A DNA stretch of 57,916 bases, filler included, from Basidiobolus ranarum (lineage: Eukaryota): NCBI GenBank assembly GCA_040143965.1. It is 7 parts of 7 records of this genome, joined end to end, with 100 filler letters (N's around TTAATTAATTAA, not from the genome) between each part and the next. Parts side by side here need not be neighbours in the genome. Positions count along the whole stretch, not along the records: positions 16,615 to 24,809 come from JASJQH010001002.1; 6 more parts are not named here. One strand, 5' to 3'. The notes under the pieces are model-generated. The model did no database searches. It saw only the letters and a list, made by a program, of their open reading frames with translations, and was not told the DNA's origin. The translations under genes and the position numbers were made by a program. Below, in pieces: positions 8,212-49,750 of the stretch (positions are counted from its first letter, which is position 1; every line of letters starts with the position of its first letter).

Positions 8212-8311
8212 NNNNNNNNNNNNNNNNNNNNNNNNNNNNNNNNNNNNNNNNNNNNTTAATTAATTAANNNNNNNNNNNNNNNNNNNNNNNNNNNNNNNNN
8301 NNNNNNNNNNN
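8212..8311. other. Artificial contig linker
   Basis: N44-TTAATTAATTAA-N44, stops in all six frames. Confidence 0.99.
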
Positions 8312-8975
8312 TGAAAACCTGGAGTTTGAAAGAAGTCACAATTCCGTATGAACCCTGACCACCACCACGTAAAGCCCAGAAAAGATCAGCATTTGATTTC
8401 TTGTTAGCGACCAAAAGTTTACCATTTGCGTTGACAATCTCAATTTCTAATACATTGTCTGAAACCATTCCATGTTTTCTGGAATATGGCCCAAAGCCAC
8501 CTCCCAAAGCGTGACCGCCGATTCCAACCAAGGGACAGGTTCCAGCGGGTATACCAAAACCTCCGTTTTTGAATAACGTGTAATATACTGAACCGAGCAA
8601 ACTTCCTGCGCCAACAACTGCCGATTTAGACTTGCTATCAACATTGATCGTATTCAATTTGGATAGATCAACAATGACGTCTCCATTACGTCCTCCTTGA
8701 GAGTAACCTTCATATGAGTGGCCACCACTTCTTGCTGAGATGGTATTGTTATTTTGAACTGCACACTTGACAGCATTTTGCACGTCTTTAGTATTTCTAG
8801 CAACGACATATAATAGCGGCTTGAAGTTCAGACGATTGTTAAAGTTGAAGTTGACTTTAGCGAAACCACCATTGGATTGATTTATAATAGGGGTACCAGA
8901 TTTCTTGAAGCAATTTTCAATACTGCTACCGAAGGCCAACGATGGCAAAATGGCAAGCAAAAAGAGTGACTTCAT
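8312..8975 (-). CDS. Secreted FAD-linked oxidase (berberine-bridge-enzyme/AA7-like), 3' end cut by the contig break
   Basis: Signal peptide MKSLFLLAILPSLAFG; RSGGHSYEG and AGTCPLVGIGGHALGGG (His and Cys for covalent FAD); DLFWALRGGG; no introns in the visible part. Confidence 0.92.
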
Positions 8976-16514: not shown

Positions 16515-16614
16515 NNNNNNNNNNNNNNNNNNNNNNNNNNNNNNNNNNNNNNNNNNNNTTAATTAATTAANNNNNNNNNNNNNNNNNNNNNNNNNNNNNN
16601 NNNNNNNNNNNNNN
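16515..16614. other. Artificial contig linker
   Basis: N44-TTAATTAATTAA-N44. Confidence 0.99.
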
Positions 16615-17004
16615 CATGCCTTGTGGAATATTACTAATTCCGGCTGACCCCAACTCTTCAACTTCTCCTTGCTCAGATTTTACGCCACTACCCTCCACTT
16701 CAAAGCTAGGGCTGGACTGAAACTGTACGTCAGAATTTCCTTGGTCATGGATATTGGCATTGTTCAAATTATCGTGCTTTCTGGTAACGGTGGTGAACAC
16801 TTGCTTGAGTAGTGGAACCGACTCGGATTCGGTTTGAACACTTGCTGGCTGCTGAGCGGAAGAAGTTTGATCTTGGCTATAGTCGGTTGATTCCTCTGGT
16901 TACATTGCACTTTCATAATGATCAAAATATCTACCTGAAGGAACAGCACCTGATACTTTAACCAGTAAAACCAAAGTGAAGAGTAAGCTAAGTTTAGGAT
17001 GCAT
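16615..17004 (-). CDS. Putative secreted low-complexity (Ser/Gln/Glu-rich) protein, 3' truncated; needs a 39-nt intron or has a premature stop
   Basis: ATG at 17004 gives MHPKLSLLFTLVLLVKVSGA signal-like peptide; TATA-like sequence upstream; in-frame TAA lies inside a possible GTAGAT..TAACCAG mini-intron; frame then open to contig end. Confidence 0.5.
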
Positions 17005-18478
17005 AGTTGCGATGTTCTTCCATGTATATACTCATTCGTATATATATTAGCAAAGGCGGTTATATCAAACTTACAACATTGAGTTATTGATCAATGTGTT
17101 ATAATGTATTAATATATTAGCATATAGACTGATCTTATACTAATCTACCGAGTACTTGGTTTTCATAAATATCAGTACGAGACTGACGGTAGTATTGATG
17201 GTAGCATTGAAAAAATGACTCATGTTACGCTTATTCAAGTATATAATTCAAAGAATGCACACAAGAATGTCACAACTTCATGCAGAGACTATCTTCATTG
17301 TTGGTAGTAAATGCATGTCTGGATACAGATGGAGAGTGGAGCTGCTTGATGCTTGAAATTATGATCAGGTAACGCTTGTTGAGGTAAAGATTGACCAAGA
17401 GTATTTGCTAACTCTAAGGGTAGATCAATGGGTATAGCATTCGACGAACCTGTACCAGCTATTCTCTGTACATCATCACTCGCGTTATTGAACCCTGAAT
17501 CTGATGCTTCAGATAGTAGAGGGTCTTCAGCCTAGCTATGGGATGCATGCTGTGACAATATAAACTCAAGTAGTAAGGATATTTACTAATTGTGAGTATG
17601 AAATATCTAATGTATTATAATTAGTAAGTTATTAACTGAGTGCTGTCTATATCACCTCGCTATGAAAAATATAGGTGAGGCCAAGTAAATCTTTTGGTTT
17701 GGTACAGATTGTAACAAACATTATGCACATTGTGTAGATAACAGTCTTTGATATTTAGAAAGTGATTCCACCACTCCTTATGATACTAGCATCTGTCCTT
17801 GGCACTGTCAATGAATTAGCTTTGAGCTCACATTTTTTAAATTATGCTTTGGCTAGTAATGATTTCTGGCTCTCTTCATAAGTGAATATATGAGAAGAAT
17901 CGACTGGAGATAAAATCGTTAATATAAAAAGCAAGAAGAAATGGCAGTTATCAGGTCAAAAAAGTATATTACCCATTGCTATATTATTGATCTCTTTATG
18001 TGGCGCTTATCTCAATACATATGATAGTTTGCAACGTTACAATAGTAGTTTTACTACCATCTGACTTTTTGTTGTACTGCAAACTGAGATAACACTCTGG
18101 GATGCGGAAGTTGAACTGTAGGGAATTTGAGCTCTTTTATACACCAAAAAGGCTAACTACAAGGAGAAAATCATGGTTTTCTGATAGATGTCGATGGTAG
18201 GTTGAATATATGCTTATTTATTTCAATATAAAAATCCAAATTCACAATGGAGCCATTGAATACTTAATAACGGCTTAGTTATGGCTTCGACTGTACTGGT
18301 GATATATCTTCGAATGCTCATAATTCCAATTGATTTTGTTGAGAATTGAAAAAGTACTTGATAAAAATCTGTATTCAAGTAAACGATATTTATATCTTTT
18401 TGACTCGGAAAAATAACCCAATTGGGGTCATTTGTAGTTGTTGAAATTGAGCCCAATAGTATGCATAATTAATCCTTA

Positions 18479-18648
18479 TCATCTTGACAAAACTATAAAT
18501 GTCAATTTTCTACTCGATGAATCAATAAGTGAAAACCACCAATTCTTATTGAAAACCACCAATTCTTAGTGAAAACCACCAATTCTTATTGAAAACCACC
18601 AATTCTTTTAGTTCGAAAAATTACTTCCAACAAACCCCCAAAATACAG
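18479..18648 (+). mobile_element. Partial Copia-family LTR with an internal 20-bp tandem repeat x4 (18530-18607)
   Basis: CATCTTGACAAAACTATAAATGTCAA..AAGTGAAAACCACCAATT matches 883-950; unit TGAAAACCACCAATTCTTA(T/G). Confidence 0.88.
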
Positions 18649-18812
18649 GATGCTCTATACCATTATTGCTAAGTACGTTAAGAGTGAGTATAATCCTATT
18701 CAGTCAGAATATGTTGGGAAAATATTGTCCTAAATGTCACTCTCTATAGACTAATGCATAAATTAAATAAAGTGCTTTTCATCCCCCTATCAATGATCTG
18801 TAACAATTTTAA

Positions 18813-18995
18813 TTTCTAGCAAATTAATATTGAGCCCTGGTCGCAGCAATATGATTTGTAGTAATACAGATTTTCTAGCAAATTAGTGAAGTATGAAATC
18901 TAGATGCAGTAGCGATGATTTGCAGTGATCTTGCTATCCAGCAAATCAACCAAGTATGAAATCCTGATGCGTGGTGCAATATTGAAGATTTGCCA
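18813..18995. repeat. Degenerate tandem repeat of about 60 bp, about 3 copies
   Basis: Recurring (T/C)AGCAAAT..AAGTATGAAATC..GATGC..ATGATTTG blocks. Confidence 0.6.
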
Positions 18996-19322
18996 TGCTC
19001 CATGTGGGAAAAATTCCAAACTGCTAAAGCGTTTCATTGACTAATAATCTGAAGCACATATTGGTCAAGGCACGCTATGGCATAATGGAGATTGAAGGGC
19101 AAAATCTACTAGAGCTTGAATATAATGATTTGTTGAATGACGTCTTGAGTGCATATGTACATGAGATTGTTAAAAATCACACTTGTATTCCAAATAAACA
19201 AGTTAGATCCATGCAAGCAGTTTTAAAACGACTGAGTTTCGTAAGATGCTTCGTTGGATATATAAGAGTGGAAAAATACTAATCTCCGCAACCAACAACA
19301 TTTTAGTAAGCCTCAAAAGAAT

Positions 19323-20265
19323 ATGGTACTGATCAAAGTAGCTACACTTACTCTCCTGCTCTCCACAAGCTCGGCCATATTCTTGGCGTATGCTTCTCCA
19401 ATGGCCAATCAGCGCCATCAAAGTGGTAATAAGCCTAAAGCAACGCCAATCAAAATTTACTCTTTCAAAGATGCACTCTGGCCAGGCCCAGTTCGTCTCA
19501 CTCTAGCCGAGAAGAATATCAAAGAAGTCGAAGTGATCGAAGTGAACTTGGCTGTTGCTGAAAACTTTTCCCCAGAGTACCTCAAGTAAGATAGTGACGC
19601 AGTATTTATCTCAGTAATGATTATAACCATTCGTTCTAGGATCAACCAGCACGGCACTGTGCCTGCCTTAGTAATCGCGAAAACAACCAAGATTCTAGAC
19701 GACTCTACTACCATTACCAAGTATCTTGACCAAAATTACCCAGGAACAGAGTTGTACCCCGTCAAGGAGCAATCAATTGTTGACCACTGGATCAAGCAAG
19801 CGCACAATGTTGATGGAAATCTCTTGGCTATCTCTTCAGCCAATCTTGATGAACTAAAGCAGAAAAAAGCCTTTGTTGAAAAATTTTTGGGGGGGTCGTT
19901 TAAAGGCTTTGGCAAAATTCATGCAGAAGCAAGATACTGCATTCTACCGTCAGAAACAAAAGGAAATGCAATCGACCCTGAGTGCTTACCAACATCCTGA
20001 ACAAGCGCAGCCGTTGTATGATAGTCACAATAACGAATGGAAAAAGGCAGGAGCGTTTCTGAATCGGTTAGATTCCCAGTTAGCAATTGGCCCTTATATT
20101 GTGGGAAAGAAGTATACAGCAGCTGATGTTCATGTCATCCCATTGCTAGTGCGGTTAAAGTCAGTCAAAGGAGATGCAGTGTTGAAGGGAAGACATAACC
20201 TACAGCGGTATCTGAACAAGGTGGCGTCTAGGGCGAATTTCAAGGCAGTGTATGGCACACTGTAA
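19323..20265 (+). CDS. Glutathione S-transferase-like protein with an N-terminal signal peptide; intron 19586-19639; frameshift in the G7 run at 19889-19895
   Basis: VRLTLAEK..VNLAVAENFSPEYLK|INQHGTVPALV..DSTTITKYLD (GST N domain); GPYIVGKKYTAADVHVIPLLVRL (GST C domain) lies in another frame; removing one G joins them. Confidence 0.88.
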
Positions 20266-21068
20266 TGGAATAAATACGGGTGATGCGACAGCCTAAGCTT
20301 ACTTATCCAACTGGCCGAGATAGCTAGAATTAGACAACCAGCACATAAGTGGGATAATGAATGTTGAAAATGCATATTTCATTTTAAAAGCCATAATAAA
20401 AAATGGCTCTCATACTTGATTTTCAGAACTATTGAACTCCTACAATTTTCGAAGCCCTCAAGTTGACCCCAGTCCTAACCCTTACTTGGATATAAGCAGC
20501 AAGAGCAGCATCTGCATGTATATGTATAGTGCATATTGACTCTGCCTAGAACCTCACTGGATGCATTTACTAATAATATTGGGTATCACATTGACCATCT
20601 GTCAAGAGGATCATGTACTTCATAAGATCATACACCATCAGGATTATTTTACTCATGATTCCTCAAATTTGAAGCTAAGCTACCCGTCTGTTCTCTTCTT
20701 TGATGGCAAGAATGCATTTGAGGGTATTACAACTACTAATCCTTAAGAATATTTGTTCTAAAGTCTTCTCTCAAGCAGAAGTTCTAATAACAAATTCGCC
20801 AACCATAGTTACTCAACAGCAACCCACTTCTATAACTGCTTTACCAGAGAGATTTTCTTATTTGATTAGGAATAGTACAATATAAGCAAAAGTAAGCTAA
20901 CCCTAACCCTAAGTGATGTTCTTGACGACCAATGAAGTTATACAAAGAAAATGTGATTTTATTAATTCGCAGTTGATTTGAAGTGAATTTTTAATCCTAT
21001 CTGTCACCGTTCAACATTTACGCGAAGTTTGTCTTTGTATTTCTCGCTTAAAAATAACAGTGTCGTGA

Positions 21069-21743
21069 TTATCCAAACCAATCTTGGTTTTCGTGTTCCC
21101 TTGCTAATATCGAATTCTGTCTCTTACTTAATTTCTTGCTCTCCACTAATCGCGCATGATTCGCAACGTCGCCTCCTTTCTTCATATGGAGTACTCGTCG
21201 ATTATCTCCATAATAATCAATCGCCACAACTTTCCGTATCTTCGGACTGGCAATTAAGGTTGGAAGCTCGGTGTTCGCCCAAATCCCCTCGTTTGGCAGC
21301 AGACTCGTGTCATCGGTCATGACAAATCCCTCTCCGCTACATAACTTCGCGTACGCCTCGCTCATGTTACTGAAGTAAGTATCCTTCTGTCCACTCTTTT
21401 GGATACATCTCAGCCAGCCTTTCTCGTCGTTCATGGAATAAAAGTCTTCATTTAGTCGGCCAGGTTGAGCTGGATGCTCAACGGACGGCCATATGGACCA
21501 GATGGTTGTTAGGTCGTGCTGACCAGCATATTCCTGCGCATGTTTGGATAAACCGCTGGTGGCGTTTTTTGCTGTGCGACGAGTGTAGAAGAGACACTTA
21601 TTTTCAGGGATCGCCGCAAGCTTGTTGTCTAAGAAGAACTCAACGGTGGCATTACCGATGGGTAGACAAGGGACCTCAATCGGTGCGGTTGATACGGCTG
21701 AGGCCAGTAGAGAGACAGCGAAGAATAGTGAATACATCATGAT
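21069..21743 (-). CDS. Secreted protein with CD38/ADP-ribosyl cyclase-like (NAD+ glycohydrolase) motifs, intronless
   Basis: Signal peptide MMYSLFFAVSLLASAVSTA; PENKCLFYTR, FSNMSEAYAKLCSGEGFVM and IWANTELPTL..KIRKV parallel CD38 [29 protein letters not shown] and TFGSVEVHNL..KVQ; ORF could also start at 21779. Confidence 0.7.
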   Translation of the reverse strand: MMMYSLFFAVSLLASAVSTAPIEVPCLPIGNATVEFFLDNKLAAIPENKCLFYTRRTAKNATSGLSKHAQEYAGQHDLTTIWSIWPSVEHPAQPGRLNEDFYSMNDEKGWLRCIQKSGQKDTYFSNMSEAYAKLCSGEGFVMTDDTSLLPNEGIWANTELPTLIASPKIRKVVAIDYYGDNRRVLHMKKGGDVANHARLVESKKLSKRQNSILAREHENQDWFG

Positions 21744-22199
21744 GGCAGAATGGATCTGAGACGAAGGCTTTGCTAACATTCACTCGCCTCTTATATATTT
21801 CTTGATTGCTTCAAAAATTTTCATAAAGAATCGGAAATGTTATGGAAGATTTGTCTTTGGTGATGCATCATATTGATCTATCCCAAATAGTAAAGGCAAT
21901 ATCTGAGACGAATAGTCAAAGCAATCTCTAAAAAGATTAAATGGAAGACGGGCGTTTAGCTAGTCACTTTTTGTGAGGCTTGTGTTCCCCAGCTGTCAGT
22001 AATACCCTGAAAGTTGCATATTTTTTTATAATTCCAATTTATTTGGAATCTTTTTTGTAATTCCATTTGATTACCTAGTTTGGTTCTTTTTTATAATTAC
22101 CTACATGTGATGGCATCTATCGTGCGACTAAATACTTGATTCTCACATAATTTGCCATGTCGAATTCCAAACCTTCGCTTTTCTATCCTCTTCGAGGTG

Positions 22200-22249
22200 G
22201 TTTGCATAATAAATGTTATGTTTGCATAATAAATGTTTGCATAATAAAT
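22200..22249. repeat. Short tandem repeat, GTTTGCATAATAAAT x3
   Basis: Seen directly in sequence. Confidence 0.85.
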
Positions 22250-24191
22250 ACTTCCAGGTAAGTCTTTCTCCTCTCCGGTCCACCTGAGCCGCAGATTTTG
22301 TTCTAGGTCTGATAGTTAGTTAGAATGAAAAACTCGATCGAAGCGAAACATTGAAAGAAAAAACATACCTGAATATCCCCATCTACCATCCTCACCGTCT
22401 CCATCCGCATATTTCTGGGTCACCTCTCTTTACTGTTGAATTGATTTTTTCAATCGTTACGGATTCTCTCTTTAATGGCCTCAACTGGGTAGATGTTGAA
22501 CGTGTGTATAGTTACTAGAAATAGAGAATCGATATACGATTTGATAACTATGACACTGTACTGGTAGAAGTATATGAATAATGAAGTAATTCATGTCCAG
22601 CTAGTTGACATTGTTTTTAGTACTAGCCGTGGACGGTATTCCCAAAGACCAGCACCATTCACTTCATTGTCAGCATCAGCGCCTTACTAGCATTTTAACT
22701 CATCCCAATAGTGGATGATGATTCTTTTATCATATTACCATTGCCTTTGTTGCATCAGCAATGGTAATACTTGTCGTGGAAGATGTTAAGGCCACACAGG
22801 CTCATTAGTATTCGGATGTTATGAACTCCTGATAAATCACACAGTTTACTTGCTACAAATATTATATCTGAGCACAATTACTATACACAGTTAAATTTGA
22901 GTTCTCTAGTAAAAAATCGATGTCTAAGGTTAGGGTTAGGGCTATATATATTAATTTTGTGTTGTTTTTGCTTCATATTCACTTTGCTGGCTTTATCGCT
23001 AGTTTTATGTACTGCTTCTATAATTGTGAGTAGTATATTTACGAATCGTTTGTATCCATATAATGGCCAAAATATTGACAGAAAATTACTTGCCTCTCAT
23101 TAAATAAGTTTGTATTTTAATCAAACTTATTAAAAACTTCTAAATCTTAAATAGAACTACAAGTTCTCTACTTGTCGCTTTCCGGCTTCATAAGTGCCTG
23201 CATTATTACTGCTATTGTCACCACTATTACCAACTCTTTATTTCAGTGATATGTATGCACAGGGCAAGTGCTATATTAAAGCAGCTATTCTCCTCTCATC
23301 CCATACTACTCCACTATTCATCTGGTTTTTTGTTAAGGTAAATATACCGCATTAGTTAAGGATTTGCTTCGTATTTGATTGGATATAGAGTTCATATGTT
23401 AATGCCAATATACTGTATACAGTAACGAATGAAGGGACTTTAGTTCACAAATTAAATTCAACACTGATATCGCCCAAGTGCAGTGGCTTATTGATTCGGT
23501 TGTATATTAACTTCTGTTACTGAGGCAAAGGCTGTGGCAATGTTTAGGGTTAAGTACTTCGATGGTAAGTACTTATTGCTATATATATTCACTTCACAAC
23601 TTGTCATATTATTTTATAATTATAATTATAGCATTATAACAATTAGTATTGTAGAAGGCTTCTCTACTTATTATAACATTGTAACAACTGGGGCTTCCCT
23701 ACTTGCTATTATAATTATATCATGCTAAACATGTGGGCACTATACGTATATATATCGAGTGACAATATAGCAGGTAATATCAACATAAGGATTATCTGAA
23801 GACTGAGCAGAGCATAAGTGAGCACCAGTCTGAACCTCATATACATACATGATTAAAGGCTTATTTGCAGCTGATTCTAAGACTCGTACAACCGTATTGA
23901 AGATAGATTCTAGTACAAGGACTGATTGAAACCTTCCAAATCAATTCGAAATACAAGTACTGTGGTAATACTCTAGTATACTTCTCAATAGAAATATTTA
24001 TACAAATATGAAACAACTGAACACTATGACTATATAACAACTGAACACTATGGCTTGATGATCCGTCTGACTGAGTGTTATTTTATAACTTTACTCCACT
24101 ATAGCTGATTAGGACTACGTCATCTCAATCTATCTCCATAAATACTCGGAGTCACTACATCCTAAATACCCACCTACATTTCCGCTTTCTC

Positions 24192-24662
24192 ATGAATACA
24201 CAAGAAGCCAAGAAGCGTTTTAATCAATTAAGAACTCAAGATGGAGTCATAGAAGACAAGGCGCTAGATGATGTGTACGACGCCCTAGAGCCTGTTAGCT
24301 GTGAAAGCCTTTTTGGTGAATGGAAAGGGGGAGACTTCAATACCGGTCACCCTTGCTCGAATATGTTGACCGAGATGCGTTGGTATGGAAAAACCTTTAA
24401 CGCACTCTGGGATGCTAAACCTCTCATTTGCCGAGATGAGCATGGTAAGCTCTACTCCAATACAGAGGCGATGGGTGGTGAAGCAAGTTTGTGGATGATT
24501 GAATTTCGTGGCAAGGTTTCTGCTACCATGGTGTATGATGCGCGCCCAGTTTTTGACCATTTTAGAAAAGTAGACGATAACACCATCATGGGAATCATGA
24601 ACGGTCAAGGTTTATTTGATATCTCACCACGATACTACTACTTTTTTATAGAACGAGTATAG
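24192..24662 (+). CDS. GXWXG + DUF4334 domain protein, intronless
   Basis: GEWKGGDFNTGHP, WYGKTF, ASLWMIEFRGKVSATMVYDARPVFDHFRKVDDNTIMGIM; TATA-like CATAAATA upstream. Confidence 0.9.
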   Translation: MNTQEAKKRFNQLRTQDGVIEDKALDDVYDALEPVSCESLFGEWKGGDFNTGHPCSNMLTEMRWYGKTFNALWDAKPLICRDEHGKLYSNTEAMGGEASLWMIEFRGKVSATMVYDARPVFDHFRKVDDNTIMGIMNGQGLFDISPRYYYFFIERV

Positions 24663-24809
24663 CTACTTTTAGGTGGATGACTTGAAAATCCTCCTCACTT
24701 TATTGTTTATTACATACATAATAGTGGCTAATAAATAGTTTTTCATTCAACTGCGTTCTCTTTGGTTTTCATTCGTTTATCGCAGTCTGGATCGACACTT
24801 CCACCATTG

Positions 24810-24909
24810 NNNNNNNNNNNNNNNNNNNNNNNNNNNNNNNNNNNNNNNNNNNNTTAATTAATTAANNNNNNNNNNNNNNNNNNNNNNNNNNNNNNNNNNN
24901 NNNNNNNNN
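24810..24909. other. Artificial contig linker
   Basis: N44-TTAATTAATTAA-N44. Confidence 0.99.
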
Positions 24910-25413: not shown

Positions 25414-26526
25414 TTAAGCTTCAAAAGTGATTTCCGGGAATTTACTATCAGGTCGTTGCAGGATAGGATCATTGGTGTGCCCTAATATACGACCTAGAAA
25501 AGCGGTAATATAAGTGCGTTGTATTAACAATGACCTGAGTCCATTGATAGTTCCAATTACTGGCACTTGTACAGGATCTCTAATATCTAATAAGTCAGTT
25601 AGAACTGGTATATCGGAATATGTAAGATGACCAGAGTTGGCTAGTTGGAGTTGTAATCGCCATGATCGCAAGTTAGGCCAAAATTTTGCCCAACTGGCGG
25701 CGTTACTCCTGTTATGTTGGGTAAGACCCATTATGAGAAATGGCCGGTCCAAGCCTTTCTCTACCACTGGGCCCCAGAGTGCACCATCAAGATTAGCGCC
25801 TCCTATAATGCGAGTATCGTTCAGCATGGCGGTAGCTGCAGTTGCACCACCCAAAGAATGACCAAACATAGCAACCCTGCGAACATCCAGTTTCTTGCGC
25901 AGAGCTGGTATTTTCTTACTTATTTTTAAAGTGTTCAGCTGGTCTAATACAAAACTGACATCATCAGAACGAACGTTTACCGCCTGAATAATCTGTTCAA
26001 TAGTCCATTCCTTTCCAGGAATATCTGCAATTAGTTTTCCGTTGGGAAACTCCACAACATGTGCGTCATAGGGATGGTCAATAGATACTACAAGATAGCC
26101 ACGGCTTGCAATATCTGTCAACAGAGTTGTATGCATAAAGCGAGACATTCCTAAGCCATGGGAAAATAGAACAATCGGTAAGTCGGATTGAGCAATAGGG
26201 GCACCTAGATGAGTGTGGGTCTGAAAGCTTTGCAATGTATTATTGGGCAGTCCAAACATTTTGTTCATATATTGGGCAGTAAGCTCAGGCATATATGGCG
26301 AAGTAGGGTAACGGTGAGTATGCTTCGCAGGATAGAAAACTTGAATCATCAAAGCGCGTTTTTGTGAACCTGGGGCGTTTGGGTCAATCCGCTTGTGATC
26401 AACCAGCATTATATTGACAGTCCCAACTTTGAACTTTCCTGTCGCATCAGGCAAAGATAGTTTGGAAGATACAAAAGCAAGGGAAGCAGCAAGCAAAGCT
26501 ACCACAGTGAAAGATTTAATGATCAT
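25414..26526 (-). CDS. Secreted PAF-acetylhydrolase-like alpha/beta hydrolase, intronless
   Basis: Signal peptide; LFSHGLG, SIDHPYDA, nucleophile GHSLGG, NLDG, GHLTYSD. Confidence 0.92.
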   Translation of the reverse strand: MIIKSFTVVALLAASLAFVSSKLSLPDATGKFKVGTVNIMLVDHKRIDPNAPGSQKRALMIQVFYPAKHTHRYPTSPYMPELTAQYMNKMFGLPNNTLQSFQTHTHLGAPIAQSDLPIVLFSHGLGMSRFMHTTLLTDIASRGYLVVSIDHPYDAHVVEFPNGKLIADIPGKEWTIEQIIQAVNVRSDDVSFVLDQLNTLKISKKIPALRKKLDVRRVAMFGHSLGGATAATAMLNDTRIIGGANLDGALWGPVVEKGLDRPFLIMGLTQHNRSNAASWAKFWPNLRSWRLQLQLANSGHLTYSDIPVLTDLLDIRDPVQVPVIGTINGLRSLLIQRTYITAFLGRILGHTNDPILQRPDSKFPEITFEA

Positions 26527-33093: not shown

Positions 33094-33193
33094 NNNNNNN
33101 NNNNNNNNNNNNNNNNNNNNNNNNNNNNNNNNNNNNNTTAATTAATTAANNNNNNNNNNNNNNNNNNNNNNNNNNNNNNNNNNNNNNNNNNNN
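33094..33193. other. Artificial contig linker
   Basis: N44-TTAATTAATTAA-N44. Confidence 0.99.
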
Positions 33194-41372: not shown

Positions 41373-41472
41373 NNNNNNNNNNNNNNNNNNNNNNNNNNNN
41401 NNNNNNNNNNNNNNNNTTAATTAATTAANNNNNNNNNNNNNNNNNNNNNNNNNNNNNNNNNNNNNNNNNNNN
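41373..41472. other. Artificial contig linker
   Basis: N44-TTAATTAATTAA-N44. Confidence 0.99.
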
Positions 41473-47199: not shown

Positions 47200-48977
47200 A
47201 TAAAATTCTAGTAGTTTAATCGAAGTTACAAAAGTATGGGTCTTTACTTTACTAGTCGTTATTTTTCTAAGGCACTGCTGAAAGAATTGGAACACGAAGA
47301 CCTTTGTTTGCAGTTATATCTAGATCCAGTAGTGTGTGGCTAACCCTAAGTGGCTTCTCGGCAATTCGTATGTATATTCACTAAAACTTAACGCTGATGT
47401 GCAAAGTAGATTTAGAACAGTTGGTGGAACGGTGATAGCATAAAACTTACTTAAGAAAAATAATTCATAAAAAAGATTCTGTTCTTATAATAAAATAGTA
47501 TGGACTTCGGTACAGTTTAAATATAGAGAATATTGGGATATAATCTGGGAATTTGGCATAGGAAGAATGAACCAAGTTAACTTACATAATTCAAGTAGAT
47601 TACATGATTGTCAGAGAAATGTATTGCCAAGTGCATTAGCGAAAAAGTTCCATTATTATTAACTAAAGGATAGTGAGTAAATTTATTTCCTATCGACGTA
47701 TCCTAGATCATGCCAAAGCCTTGGGAATTTTCGATGGCAGTTAGTAGTCTCTTCCTACTATATTCACCATAGTAAGAGGGCATTGGACCACGTATGGGAT
47801 GCTGGTAAATTGTGAGAGTAAAGTTGATAAATAGGAACCCCATCAACTTTCTAAAATGATGCTCTTACCGATTAAAGTCATCGACATTTTTAGCGATTAT
47901 GAATTGTAGTTTACAGAGGCTACCAATAGGAACACGATCACTTCCAGTAGCAAAAAAAGCACTTTTGCTCCTGTAAATCTATGAACGATCTCCCAAAAAT
48001 TCCTAGAAAAATACACAGGTTAAAAAGAATTATCAAGGTGATTTCTCAATTGGCACACACTTGGTAACCGGTGAATCTTTTGAAAACCTGATGTCACACA
48101 TAGGGACCCCTTACGTTTTCCAAAGCTCGCAAAAGTTGTTGAGCTCCTTTTCTTCTAATCCTACTATTTACCTTTTCTTAAAAAGTTCTAAAGAGCTATA
48201 CCAACATCACCCCTTCAAAACATTTCCAATCTAGCTATGTTTTAATAACAAAAGTACTCGTTTTAATATCAACTTTTTTAAGCCTAATTATCACCCGATC
48301 TTTTATATAAAATCTGAAAAAACTCTATAAAATAAATGAATGAATATATATTCGACAAATCATTAGACAAATACAATGTAGACACAAAGACGAAAGCGTG
48401 ATCCTGGTGTGCCTTGATTATGACGAACAAGCTAGTAGACCCCCTAGACTAATTGATGGAATTGTGATCGAAAGTGTTAAATACTATATTTTGGCTGGTA
48501 AAAAGGGAGATACAGTCGAAATATATGGTTGTTTTAAATATAAAGGTGACGCTACAGCATCTAAATATGGTTCTATGGATACTTGGATGCTCAATTTTCC
48601 ATAAATTACATACATATATCCATGTCTTCTACCTTTCTGAGATAATTAATATAAACTTTGTCATACAAATCTTTGGAAAACCCTTGGCAGTTATCATACT
48701 GGGTCACCCATTCTAAAGCCTCAAAATCAAGTTCAGAACTATCACTTTTGCCAAAATTAATGGCGATAATATGCCTTAAAATTAAACCCATCAAAGATAA
48801 TGTTAGTTTCTGTTCAAGGATTTGCATAGTGAGTGCCAATGAGCTAAGCTGAGGATTCCTACCTTTCAGAATAAAAATATTAAGGCATAGCAGGATACTT
48901 TACCGAGTACAGAATAGACGTTTATTATTGTTCAATTTAGAAAACAATATATTGTACAACTCGAAATTCTCAACAAT

Positions 48978-49650
48978 TTAATCGTATTGACGACCAGAAT
49001 GGGAACGAGAATGATTCTGTTGACCATTTCTGTGGGAGATTCCACGTTCGTATTCGTTATCATACTCGTCTTGTTCGTATTGACGACCATAACGAGAACG
49101 AGGATAGTTCTGCTGACCATTTCTGCCATATACACCACGTTTGTACTTGTTATCGTACTCGTCTTGTTCGTATTGACGACCATAGCGAGAGCGGGGATAG
49201 TTCTGCTGACCATTTCTGCCAGACACACCACGTTCGTACTCATTATCGTACTCGTCCTGTTCATATTGACGACCATAGCGAGAGCGAGGATAGTTTTGTT
49301 GACCATTTCTGCGAGAAATATCACGTTCATACTCGTTATCGTACTCGTCTTGTTCATACTGACGGCCATAGCGAGAGTGGGGATAGTTTTGTTGACCATT
49401 TCTGCGAGAAATATCACGTTCATACTCGTTATCGTACTCGTCCTGTTCATATTGACGGCCATAGCGAGAGCGGGGATAGTCTTGTTGACCATTTCTGCGA
49501 GAAATACCACGTTCATACTCGTTATCGTACTCATCTTGTTCATATTGACGGCCATAGCGAGATCGGGGATAGTTTTGTTGACCATTTCTGCGAGAGACAC
49601 CACGTTCGTACTCGTTATCATACTAATCTTGCTCATACTGGCGCCCATAA
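48978..49650 (-). CDS. C-terminal part of a Tyr/Arg/Glu-rich tandem-repeat protein (93-bp, 31-aa unit, about 7 copies); 5' end lost at the contig break
   Basis: Unit YGRQYEQDEYDNEYERGISRRNGQQNYPRSR; differences between repeats are mostly synonymous in this frame; AATAAA downstream of the stop; one GAG>TAG near the contig end. Confidence 0.7.
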
Positions 49651-49750
49651 NNNNNNNNNNNNNNNNNNNNNNNNNNNNNNNNNNNNNNNNNNNNTTAATT
49701 AATTAANNNNNNNNNNNNNNNNNNNNNNNNNNNNNNNNNNNNNNNNNNNN
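49651..49750. other. Artificial contig linker
   Basis: N44-TTAATTAATTAA-N44. Confidence 0.99.

Follow-up and report, generated by a model that had tools for sequence, protein, structure and literature searches.

The window analysed here is a stretch of 57,916 nucleotides from the fungus Basidiobolus ranarum (assembly GCA_040143965.1). On its minus strand, within the contig at positions 16615–24809 (JASJQH010001002.1, 8195 bp), lies a gene for a small protein that the first-pass annotation had likened to CD38 and proposed as a secreted member of the ADP-ribosyl cyclase (ARC) group. The longest open reading frame (ORF) at this position comprises 236 codons plus a stop and needs no intron, as had been annotated. 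A 223-amino-acid protein identical to the product from Met14 onwards is on record in public protein collections, and a tblastn search of the window mapped this form to 21740–21072 and found no second copy there. The coding sequence probably starts at Met14, and residue numbers below refer to the 223-aa form. A TATA-like element, 'tatataag', is positioned 11 nt 5′ of the first ATG and 50 nt 5′ of the Met14 ATG, a weak argument that would mildly favour the latter as the start.

The first residues of the protein, MMYSLFFAVSLLASAVSTA, are hydrophobic (Kyte-Doolittle 11-mer mean ~2.0), and a similarly hydrophobic N-terminus is present in 58 of the 68 homologues that are at least 180 aa long and start with Met. 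Judged by hydrophobicity, the signal peptide proposed at first pass is upheld as a prediction, and the protein is presumably secreted. There are four Cys residues (C25, C49, C112 and C134), in keeping with the 'several Cys' noted earlier, and three N-x-S/T sequons; the C-terminal end reads ...LSKRQNSILAREHENQDWFG. The frame is intact throughout and can be aligned to homologues from the signal peptide through to the terminal DWFG. The features of the gene as a whole are as follows.

21069–21779, minus strand: longest ORF, 236 codons plus stop, as in the earlier annotation
21072–21740, minus strand: probable coding sequence from Met14, 223 aa (identical public protein; tblastn)
21790–21797, minus strand: putative TATA-like element 'tatataag'
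21684–21740, minus strand: predicted signal peptide, residues 1–19 (hydrophobicity; homologue N-termini)
21180–21668, minus strand: predicted ARC (ADP-ribosyl cyclase/Tox-ARC) core, residues ~25–187 (model aligned to ARC structures; predicted local distance difference test, pLDDT, mostly >90)

Relatives and predicted fold

Searched singly, the protein gave matches that were weak but in register. Residues 120–184 aligned with positions 120–183 of the Pfam ARC profile PF02267 with an E-value of 0.11 (12.3 bits, where the cut-off is 25), and the bacterial ARC toxins 9ro8 and 9ouf were matched in the PDB with E-values of 0.0024 and 0.0068. An initial word-index search for homologues returned only the protein itself. 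Exhaustive HMMER searching of 1.84 billion representatives identified 105 relatives at E ≤ 1e-3, of which 17 reached E ≤ 1e-10. We aligned 62 of the 105 as family alignment A1 (rows of ~186–387 aa), leaving out four long fusion proteins, short fragments, and P0069 and P0082, which match over the C-terminal half only.

The profile built from A1 matched the Pantoea ARC toxin 9ro8 with an E-value of 1.1e-6, Tac1 (9ouf) with 6.6e-6 and the Aplysia ADP-ribosyl cyclase with 2.4e-6, the last across the whole core (profile positions 48–175 on chain positions 57–194). Matches to CD38 chains were weak (E 0.06–0.4). Nine of the 62 A1 members matched PF02267 at E ≤ 0.01 and none of the 62 matched any other Pfam family, while an NCBIfam search gave nothing meaningful; one homologue had automatically been named ARC. 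The ARC assignment accounts for all domains save a 35-residue tail. For the TNT family, which includes characterised fungal NADases, there was no Pfam match at E ≤ 10 and no TNT structure among the fold-search matches listed. We considered and dropped a UniRef label attached to a Peltaster homologue ('Ecp2 effector protein domain-containing'), as 0 of 62 members matched the Ecp2/Hce2 Pfam family at E ≤ 0.01. Feature matches of the ARC protein in the ESM Atlas fell below the 0.9 bar and were treated as leads, not as evidence.

A single-sequence AlphaFold2 (AF2) model was useless (pLDDT 37.6) and was replaced by one computed with the A1 alignment, which reached a pLDDT of 83.6 and a predicted template modelling score of 0.78, with only residues 197–216 below 50. 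When this model was compared with the PDB by Foldseek, the best 50 of 64 matches at E ≤ 0.001 were all ARC structures, headed by 9ro8 (1.4e-8) and 9ouf (1.8e-8) and followed by Aplysia cyclase, CD157 and CD38. VIA-align gave Z-scores of 14.3 to 9ro8_A (127 of 127 residues, root-mean-square deviation 2.7), 13.2 to 9ouf and 8.3–9.2 to the animal enzymes Aplysia cyclase, CD38 and CD157. A scan of 48,161 representative chains, carried out independently of Foldseek, placed ARC structures in all of the top four positions (Z 12.6, 8.9, 8.5 and 7.7); deoxyribosyltransferases, TIR domains and others came next, at Z 5.7 and below.

The CD38/ARC fold put forward in the first-pass annotation is thus upheld by the profile search, the fold prediction, three fold searches and the column counts given below, and the model superposes on ARC structures including CD38 (Z ~9). 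We regard membership of the ARC fold as almost certain. On the evidence of the model, the protein resembles the compact bacterial core more closely than it does the animal enzymes of ~250 residues.

Predicted active site and C-terminal tail

Residue equivalences were taken from the hidden Markov model (HMM) alignment of the A1 profile to Aplysia cyclase, and conservation was counted over the 62 A1 rows. The alignment pairs CLFYT with 'VMFWSG', TIW with TLE(D), YFxNMS with 'SFWGMAS' and IWxxxELP with 'FFGKYELP', reproducing the three blocks and the TLEDT-to-TIWSI equivalence that had been drawn by eye against CD38. The Aplysia cyclase residues paired with Tyr52, Trp81, Phe123 and Ser127 are, by what we take to be their numbers, W77, E98, W140 and S144, and Ser193 of CD38 is numbered likewise. 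W125, E146 and E226 are named as catalytically important residues of CD38 (PMC11266601). The predicted active-site positions are:

21585–21590, minus strand: Phe51-Tyr52 (CLFYT), with Tyr at the Trp of Aplysia 'MFWSG' / CD38 Trp125; Phe and Tyr in 62 of 62 rows
21498–21500, minus strand: Trp81 (TIW), at the second active-site Glu (TLEDT of Aplysia; CD38 E146); Trp in 60 of the 62 rows, with Phe and Ala once each
21360–21374, minus strand: Phe123 to Ser127 (YFSNMS), at the Trp and Ser of Aplysia 'FWGMAS' / CD38 Trp189 and Ser193; Phe in 51, Tyr in 10 and Ser in 61 of 62
21279–21284, minus strand: Ile153-Trp154 (GIW), paired with Phe174-Phe175 of Aplysia cyclase; 56 of the 62 rows have Ile at the first position and, at the second, 57 have Trp and 5 Phe
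21267–21269, minus strand: predicted catalytic Glu, E158 of the 223-aa form and E171 of the 236-aa ORF, at Aplysia E179 / CD38 E226; Glu in 60 of 62, the other two gapped

The codon for Glu158, 'gag', was read directly at 21269–21267, and Glu is retained in 60 of 60 ungapped rows, so that the catalytic Glu assigned at first pass is upheld and is conserved among homologues. The Glu179Ala entry of Aplysia cyclase (1r0s) served as an internal control: it scored 23.7 bits against the A1 profile, 6.8 bits less than the 30.5 of the wild type, and the invariant Glu of the profile therefore sits on the catalytic Glu. Its equivalents elsewhere are CD38 E226, Aplysia E179, Tac1 E573 and ARCtox E356.

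At the second Glu (CD38 E146, Tac1 E516, ARCtox E299) the situation is different. No row of the 62 has Glu or Asp in this column, and the change at the E146 equivalent, which had been pointed out for this one protein, is a family-wide replacement by Trp. The following residue is Ser in this protein and Asp or Glu in 29 of the 62 rows. By analogy, the second Glu does not seem to be strictly required for ARC membership, because a characterised member, Nac1, also lacks it. Both stacking Trp residues (CD38 W125 and W189) are replaced as well, by Tyr52 and Phe123, with aromatic character kept.

The conserved NMS of the third motif (N125-M126-S127, 21360–21368, minus strand) is also an N-glycosylation sequon. 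Asn is present in 37 of the 62 rows and Ser, which aligns to the active-site Ser, in 61. Glycosylation at N125 would fall at the active-site cleft.

Beyond the core, the protein ends in a tail with two recognisable elements.

21120–21125, minus strand: Lys206-Arg207 in LSKR|Q, a dibasic site of Kex2 type that precedes the C-terminal tail and may be cleaved
21072–21119, minus strand: 16-residue C-terminal tail ending in DWFG (DWFG at 21072–21083), recognised by motif conservation

We surveyed the tails of 118 proteins (the 105 relatives and 13 more), 83 of which start with Met and carry both motifs of the C-terminal half. The pattern [DENGQ][WFY]F[GAENDT] occurs within the last 14 residues of 23 of the 83; seven end exactly in DWFG and three in DFFG, 15 have an acidic residue and then Trp or Phe as their last two residues, and a dibasic pair is present in the tail of 47. 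The background is low: the pattern is found in 1.3% of internal 14-residue windows, and shuffled tails gave a mean of 0.34 per 83 and a maximum of 3 over 500 shuffles. As the sequences are related, the enrichment reflects conservation rather than independent events. The motif recurs across distant branches and is kept in the Orbiliaceae fusion proteins described below, where it lies ~150 residues from the core. The tail itself is poorly modelled (pLDDT 44–58), and a complex prediction of core (21–190) with tail (191–223), run without the family alignment, scored 0.02 against a mark of 0.34, which is uninformative on docking either way. We hypothesise, from these sequence patterns, that the tail is a Kex2-type pro-peptide or a regulatory tail.

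Genomic setting and distribution

The window consists of seven contigs (8211, 8203, 8195, 8184, 8179, 8178 and 8166 bp) joined by spacers made of 44 N, ttaattaattaa and a further 44 N, which appear as N-runs every ~8.3 kb.

8212–8311, 16515–16614, 24810–24909, 33094–33193, 41373–41472 and 49651–49750: artificial spacers

Because the spacers are artificial, genes on the two sides of one are not neighbours. The first-pass description of a 'repeat-rich accessory contig' was not borne out: the window is a set of joined contigs, and that of the ARC gene has just three short tandem-repeat rows and a few short repeat families. All seven have a GC content of 0.36–0.40, with tetranucleotide correlations of 0.88–0.94 among them. 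A transporter on a neighbouring contig, whose tetranucleotide correlation with the ARC contig is 0.94, shares 82–87% identity with proteins from Basidiobolus meristosporus and B. ranarum. NCBI places Basidiobolus in the phylum Basidiobolomycota.

On its own contig, the ARC gene is accompanied by a multi-exon glutathione S-transferase (GST) gene at ~19266–20265 on the plus strand, with Pfam matches spanning 19590–20265, and by an intronless gene with GXWXG and DUF4334 domains (24192–24662, plus strand; Pfam E 7e-29 and 5e-26), which is arranged head to head with the ARC gene at a distance of 2.4 kb. The nearest ESM Atlas clusters of the GXWXG/DUF4334 protein are almost all bacterial, mostly Actinomycetota (scores 0.97–0.98). 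The fungus may have a gene of bacterial type here, but Atlas taxon labels are no evidence of transfer. The source fungus is reportedly known for bacterial-type genes. We looked for an Imm74-like or other immunity candidate among 10 neighbouring ORFs of the contig and found none, the matches being to GST domains plus one weak match at chance level. A functional link between the ARC gene and its GST or DUF4334 neighbours was considered and dropped, adjacency being the sole evidence for it.

Several further features were seen along the way. A short telomere-like run, which reads ttagggttagggttag on the minus strand (2.5 units), lies inside the contig at 20897–20912, and the distance from the ARC stop codon downstream to this run is ~160 bp. 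The 20-bp unit TGAAAACCACCAATTCTTAT is repeated in tandem 3.9 times at 18530–18607, upstream of the GST gene. On other contigs, positions 48932–49706 hold two overlapping ORFs on opposite strands, of 235–238 aa, which are built of a repeated unit of ~23 residues (e.g. ...NKTSTITSMNVIFLAEMVNKTIP...) and reach the contig end; they probably represent a minisatellite, whether coding or non-coding. A further two proteins whose N-termini resemble signal peptides are encoded at 8256–8975 and 25414–26526, both on the minus strand; one of the pair is a FAD_binding_4 oxidoreductase cut by the contig end and the other a PAF-acetylhydrolase-like alpha/beta hydrolase.

The source names of homologues were looked up for 20 representatives and for 21 rows of a second search, a sample rather than a survey of all 105. 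The 20 homologues with organism names belong to the genera Trichoglossum, Paramyrothecium, Didymella, Hypoxylon, Peltaster, Whalleya, Pleomassaria, Cudoniella, Podospora, Parathielavia, Magnaporthiopsis, Stachybotrys, Gaeumannomyces, Staphylotrichum, Aspergillus, Orbilia and Arthrobotrys, all of which we take to be ascomycetes (Trichoglossum was checked). No Basidiobolus label appeared among the names looked up. The closest relative is a metagenome protein with 44% identity. In an unrooted tree of the 62 fungal-type rows the window protein paired only with this metagenome protein, on a deep branch (Shimodaira-Hasegawa approximate likelihood-ratio support 86), from which we draw no inference of transfer.

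Some homologues carry additional domains. Three Orbilia/Arthrobotrys proteins (P0013, P0034 and P0050) are 1100–1480 aa long, have the ARC domain near the C-terminus and end in DFFG; these Orbiliaceae fusions include two PF12708 (pectate-lyase-like) domains, an architecture that recalls polymorphic toxins. In an Aspergillus granulosus homologue (P0247) the ARC domain is fused to a glycosyl-hydrolase-2 sugar-binding domain.

Predicted activity and comparison with known systems

We consider it probable that the product of the gene is a small secreted enzyme with a single domain, which belongs to the ADP-ribosyl cyclase superfamily, as one of an uncharacterised family that many fungi possess, and cleaves NAD(P)+. 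Dependence of this activity on Glu158 is a proposal in which we have similar confidence. The retention of Glu158 and Ser127 throughout the family argues for catalysis. Once its signal peptide had been removed, the protein of ~23 kDa would bind NAD+ or NADP+ in the cleft that separates its beta-sheet from the helical cap, lined by Phe51/Tyr52, Trp81/Trp84, Phe123/Ser127 and Ile153/Trp154. Glu158 would stabilise the ribosyl intermediate as nicotinamide departs, and a substantial share of the product may then be released as cyclic ADP-ribose (cADPR), not solely as linear ADP-ribose (ADPr). Substantial cADPR release would be expected because the second Glu, by which CD38 and the bacterial ARC toxins favour hydrolysis of the cyclic intermediate, is Trp here. 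Both NAD(P)+ as the substrate and this spectrum of products are what we infer from the predicted active site.

Precedents from characterised enzymes bear on the product. The relevant passages on CD38 report that E226 is essential and that E146A and T221F increase cADPR synthesis (PMC7734206). Those on Tac1 describe E573A as dead and E516A as releasing cADPR, which the wild type does not; for Nac1, which has Ala at the position of the second Glu, they give approximately equal amounts of cADPR and ADPr, with the catalytic Glu required for each (PMC12356396). A cyclase-rich product is accordingly plausible for the fungal protein, though on balance we lean slightly against it.

Several observations weigh against the reading as an NAD(P)+-cleaving ARC enzyme, or against its cyclase component. 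The protein taken alone falls below the PF02267 cut-off, and the residue equivalences rest on an HMM alignment, not on residue-level structural superposition. The tested precedents have Ala, a smaller residue than Trp81. Aplysia cyclase cyclises strongly despite having the second Glu, and this residue alone does not set the product. Three of the four ARCtox active-site residues differ here (to Tyr, Trp and Phe), so that low activity or another substrate is possible; in ARCtox, the relevant passages state, toxicity was abolished when any one of W273, E299, W323 and E356 was changed to Ala (PMC12605009).

For a secreted enzyme of this kind, candidate roles would include altering extracellular NAD+/cADPR in host or microbial interactions, or scavenging NAD; any role as an 'effector' is presumed from the predicted secretion and activity. 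A more far-reaching version would have the fungus-wide family as natural extracellular cADPR synthases instead of plain NADases, made as pro-enzymes gated by a DWFG-type peptide that Kex2 releases; these would alter NAD+/cADPR signals where the fungus meets hosts or competitors, the Basidiobolus copy having been laterally acquired outside Dikarya. We think this rather unlikely as a whole.

The two toxins at the head of the structural matches, NAD(P)+ depleters according to the passages on them (PMC12605009, PMC12356396), raise the alternative of a pure NAD(P)+-depleting toxin like ARCtox or Tac1. Its pro-protein would be held harmless by the DWFG tail until Kex2 cleavage, and it would be aimed inside competitor or host cells, not at NAD+ outside them. 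Processing is suggested by the conserved dibasic site together with the terminal motif, and the Orbiliaceae homologues whose ARC domain is C-terminal recall polymorphic toxins. However, the second Glu, which is needed for full hydrolysis and for ARCtox toxicity, is missing, no immunity candidate was found among the 10 neighbouring ORFs, AF2 does not place the tail confidently, and the route by which a 23-kDa secreted fungal protein would enter a target cell is not known. We judge this alternative quite unlikely.

We also weighed a diverged ARC-fold protein that does not use NAD+ in the manner of CD38, acting instead as an N-glycosidase or base-exchange enzyme on another nucleotide, or binding a nucleotide without turnover. 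Family-wide replacement of three of the four canonical cleft residues would fit such a protein, as would the 53 of 62 members without a PF02267 match at E ≤ 0.01, and the structural neighbours in rows 5–20 of the 48,161-chain scan, 2′-deoxyribosyltransferases and TIR domains, act on other N-glycosidic substrates. Against it, the catalytic Glu and Ser are invariant, which argues for catalysis, the changes at both Trp positions are aromatic for aromatic, and ARC structures far outscore the deoxyribosyltransferases and TIR domains (Z 12.6–7.7 versus ≤5.7); we hold it to be quite unlikely too. That the ORF is not a functional gene of the fungus at all, being a chance ORF, a pseudogene or part of a contaminating contig, is extremely improbable: the contig is short (8195 bp) and is placed taxonomically through a gene on another contig, the ORF has the highest G+C at third codon positions of nine ORFs compared (0.51, against a range of 0.36–0.48), and no Basidiobolus-labelled homologue was among the matches whose names were looked up, but the frame is intact, alignable to homologues end to end and retains all conserved positions, the multi-exon GST gene marks the contig as eukaryotic, and its tetranucleotide correlation is 0.90–0.94 with the other six contigs, including 0.94 with that of the transporter.

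The reading as a secreted, NAD(P)+-cleaving ARC enzyme would matter because immunity and conflict among bacteria, plants and animals turn centrally on NAD+ and its cyclic derivatives, and it was only in 2025 that bacterial ARC toxins were characterised (PMC12605009, PMC12356396). A defined activity would be useful to effector biology, given homologues in plant-associated and nematode-trapping ascomycetes (Magnaporthiopsis, Gaeumannomyces, Didymella, Stachybotrys and Orbilia), and the family-wide Glu-to-Trp change offers a natural experiment on the determinants of the cyclase/hydrolase balance.

Among known systems, the fungal branch itself was already listed in 2012: Zhang et al. describe the same kind of object, ARC domains (Tox-ARC) in 'fungi (ascomycota, basidiomycota)', and propose a bacterial acquisition independent of that in animals (PMC3482391; repeated in PMC3417536). 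With this listing, and with one homologue automatically named ARC, the novelty claimed at first pass was overstated. The pertinent passages of Zhang et al. contain no active-site analysis, tail motif, early-diverging fungi or experiments (PMC3482391), the text of the two 2025 bacterial papers (PMC12605009, PMC12356396) has neither the word 'fungi' nor 'fungal', and a search of the open-access literature and bioRxiv found no paper characterising a fungal ARC enzyme. The fungal ARC branch was known by annotation, and the present gene is a member from an early-diverging fungus. What is new here is the family-wide Glu-to-Trp replacement, the conserved dibasic site with its DWFG-type tail, and the occurrence outside Dikarya; a further addition is that nematode-trapping fungi have the domain fused to pectate-lyase-like modules.

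The fungal TNT NADases, such as the surface NADase of Aspergillus fumigatus, are likewise secreted or surface proteins that cleave NAD+. The relevant passages present them as having an unrelated fold and as pure hydrolases, with no cyclic product and no base exchange (PMC11187862), and the earlier assignment of the Aspergillus enzyme to the TNT family agrees with this source. The characterised secreted or surface fungal NADases that we found in the literature all have the TNT fold. A secreted fungal ARC, if true, would be a second and mechanistically different route, in which cADPR formation or base exchange is possible.

The animal ARCs (Aplysia cyclase, CD38 and CD157/BST-1; PF02267) have the same fold and motif order as the fungal protein, along with the catalytic Glu and the Ser of the active site. 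They differ in having ~250 residues with extra elements, of which ~130 align, and in keeping the second Glu and both Trp. Pantoea ananatis ARCtox (9ro8) and Streptococcus parasanguinis Tac1 (9ouf) are the best matches in sequence and structure, with the compact core of ~130 residues and the catalytic Glu; around the latter, the motif IWxNxELPxL of 9ro8 compares with GIWANTELPTL here. As described in the passages on them, ARCtox and Tac1 are C-terminal domains of type VI or type VII secretion system proteins, come with immunity proteins and keep the Trp/Glu/Trp/Glu tetrad (PMC12605009, PMC12356396). The fungal protein, by contrast, stands alone behind a Sec-type signal-like peptide, with none of the polymorphic-toxin trafficking domains PAAR, LXG, Rhs or CdiA present, and has Tyr/Trp/Phe/Glu in place of the tetrad.

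Nac1 ('nontoxic ADP-ribosyl cyclase') of Actinophytocola oryzae resembles the fungal protein in several traits. The passages devoted to it (Colautti et al. 2025, PMC12356396) describe a stand-alone ARC core with an N-terminal secretion signal, no immunity partner and a naturally absent second Glu; it is bacterial, has Ala rather than Trp at that position, and no DWFG-type tail is described in those passages. Since both proteins combine a signal peptide with the lack of a partner and of the second Glu, we regard Nac1 as the nearest functional analogue of the Basidiobolus protein.

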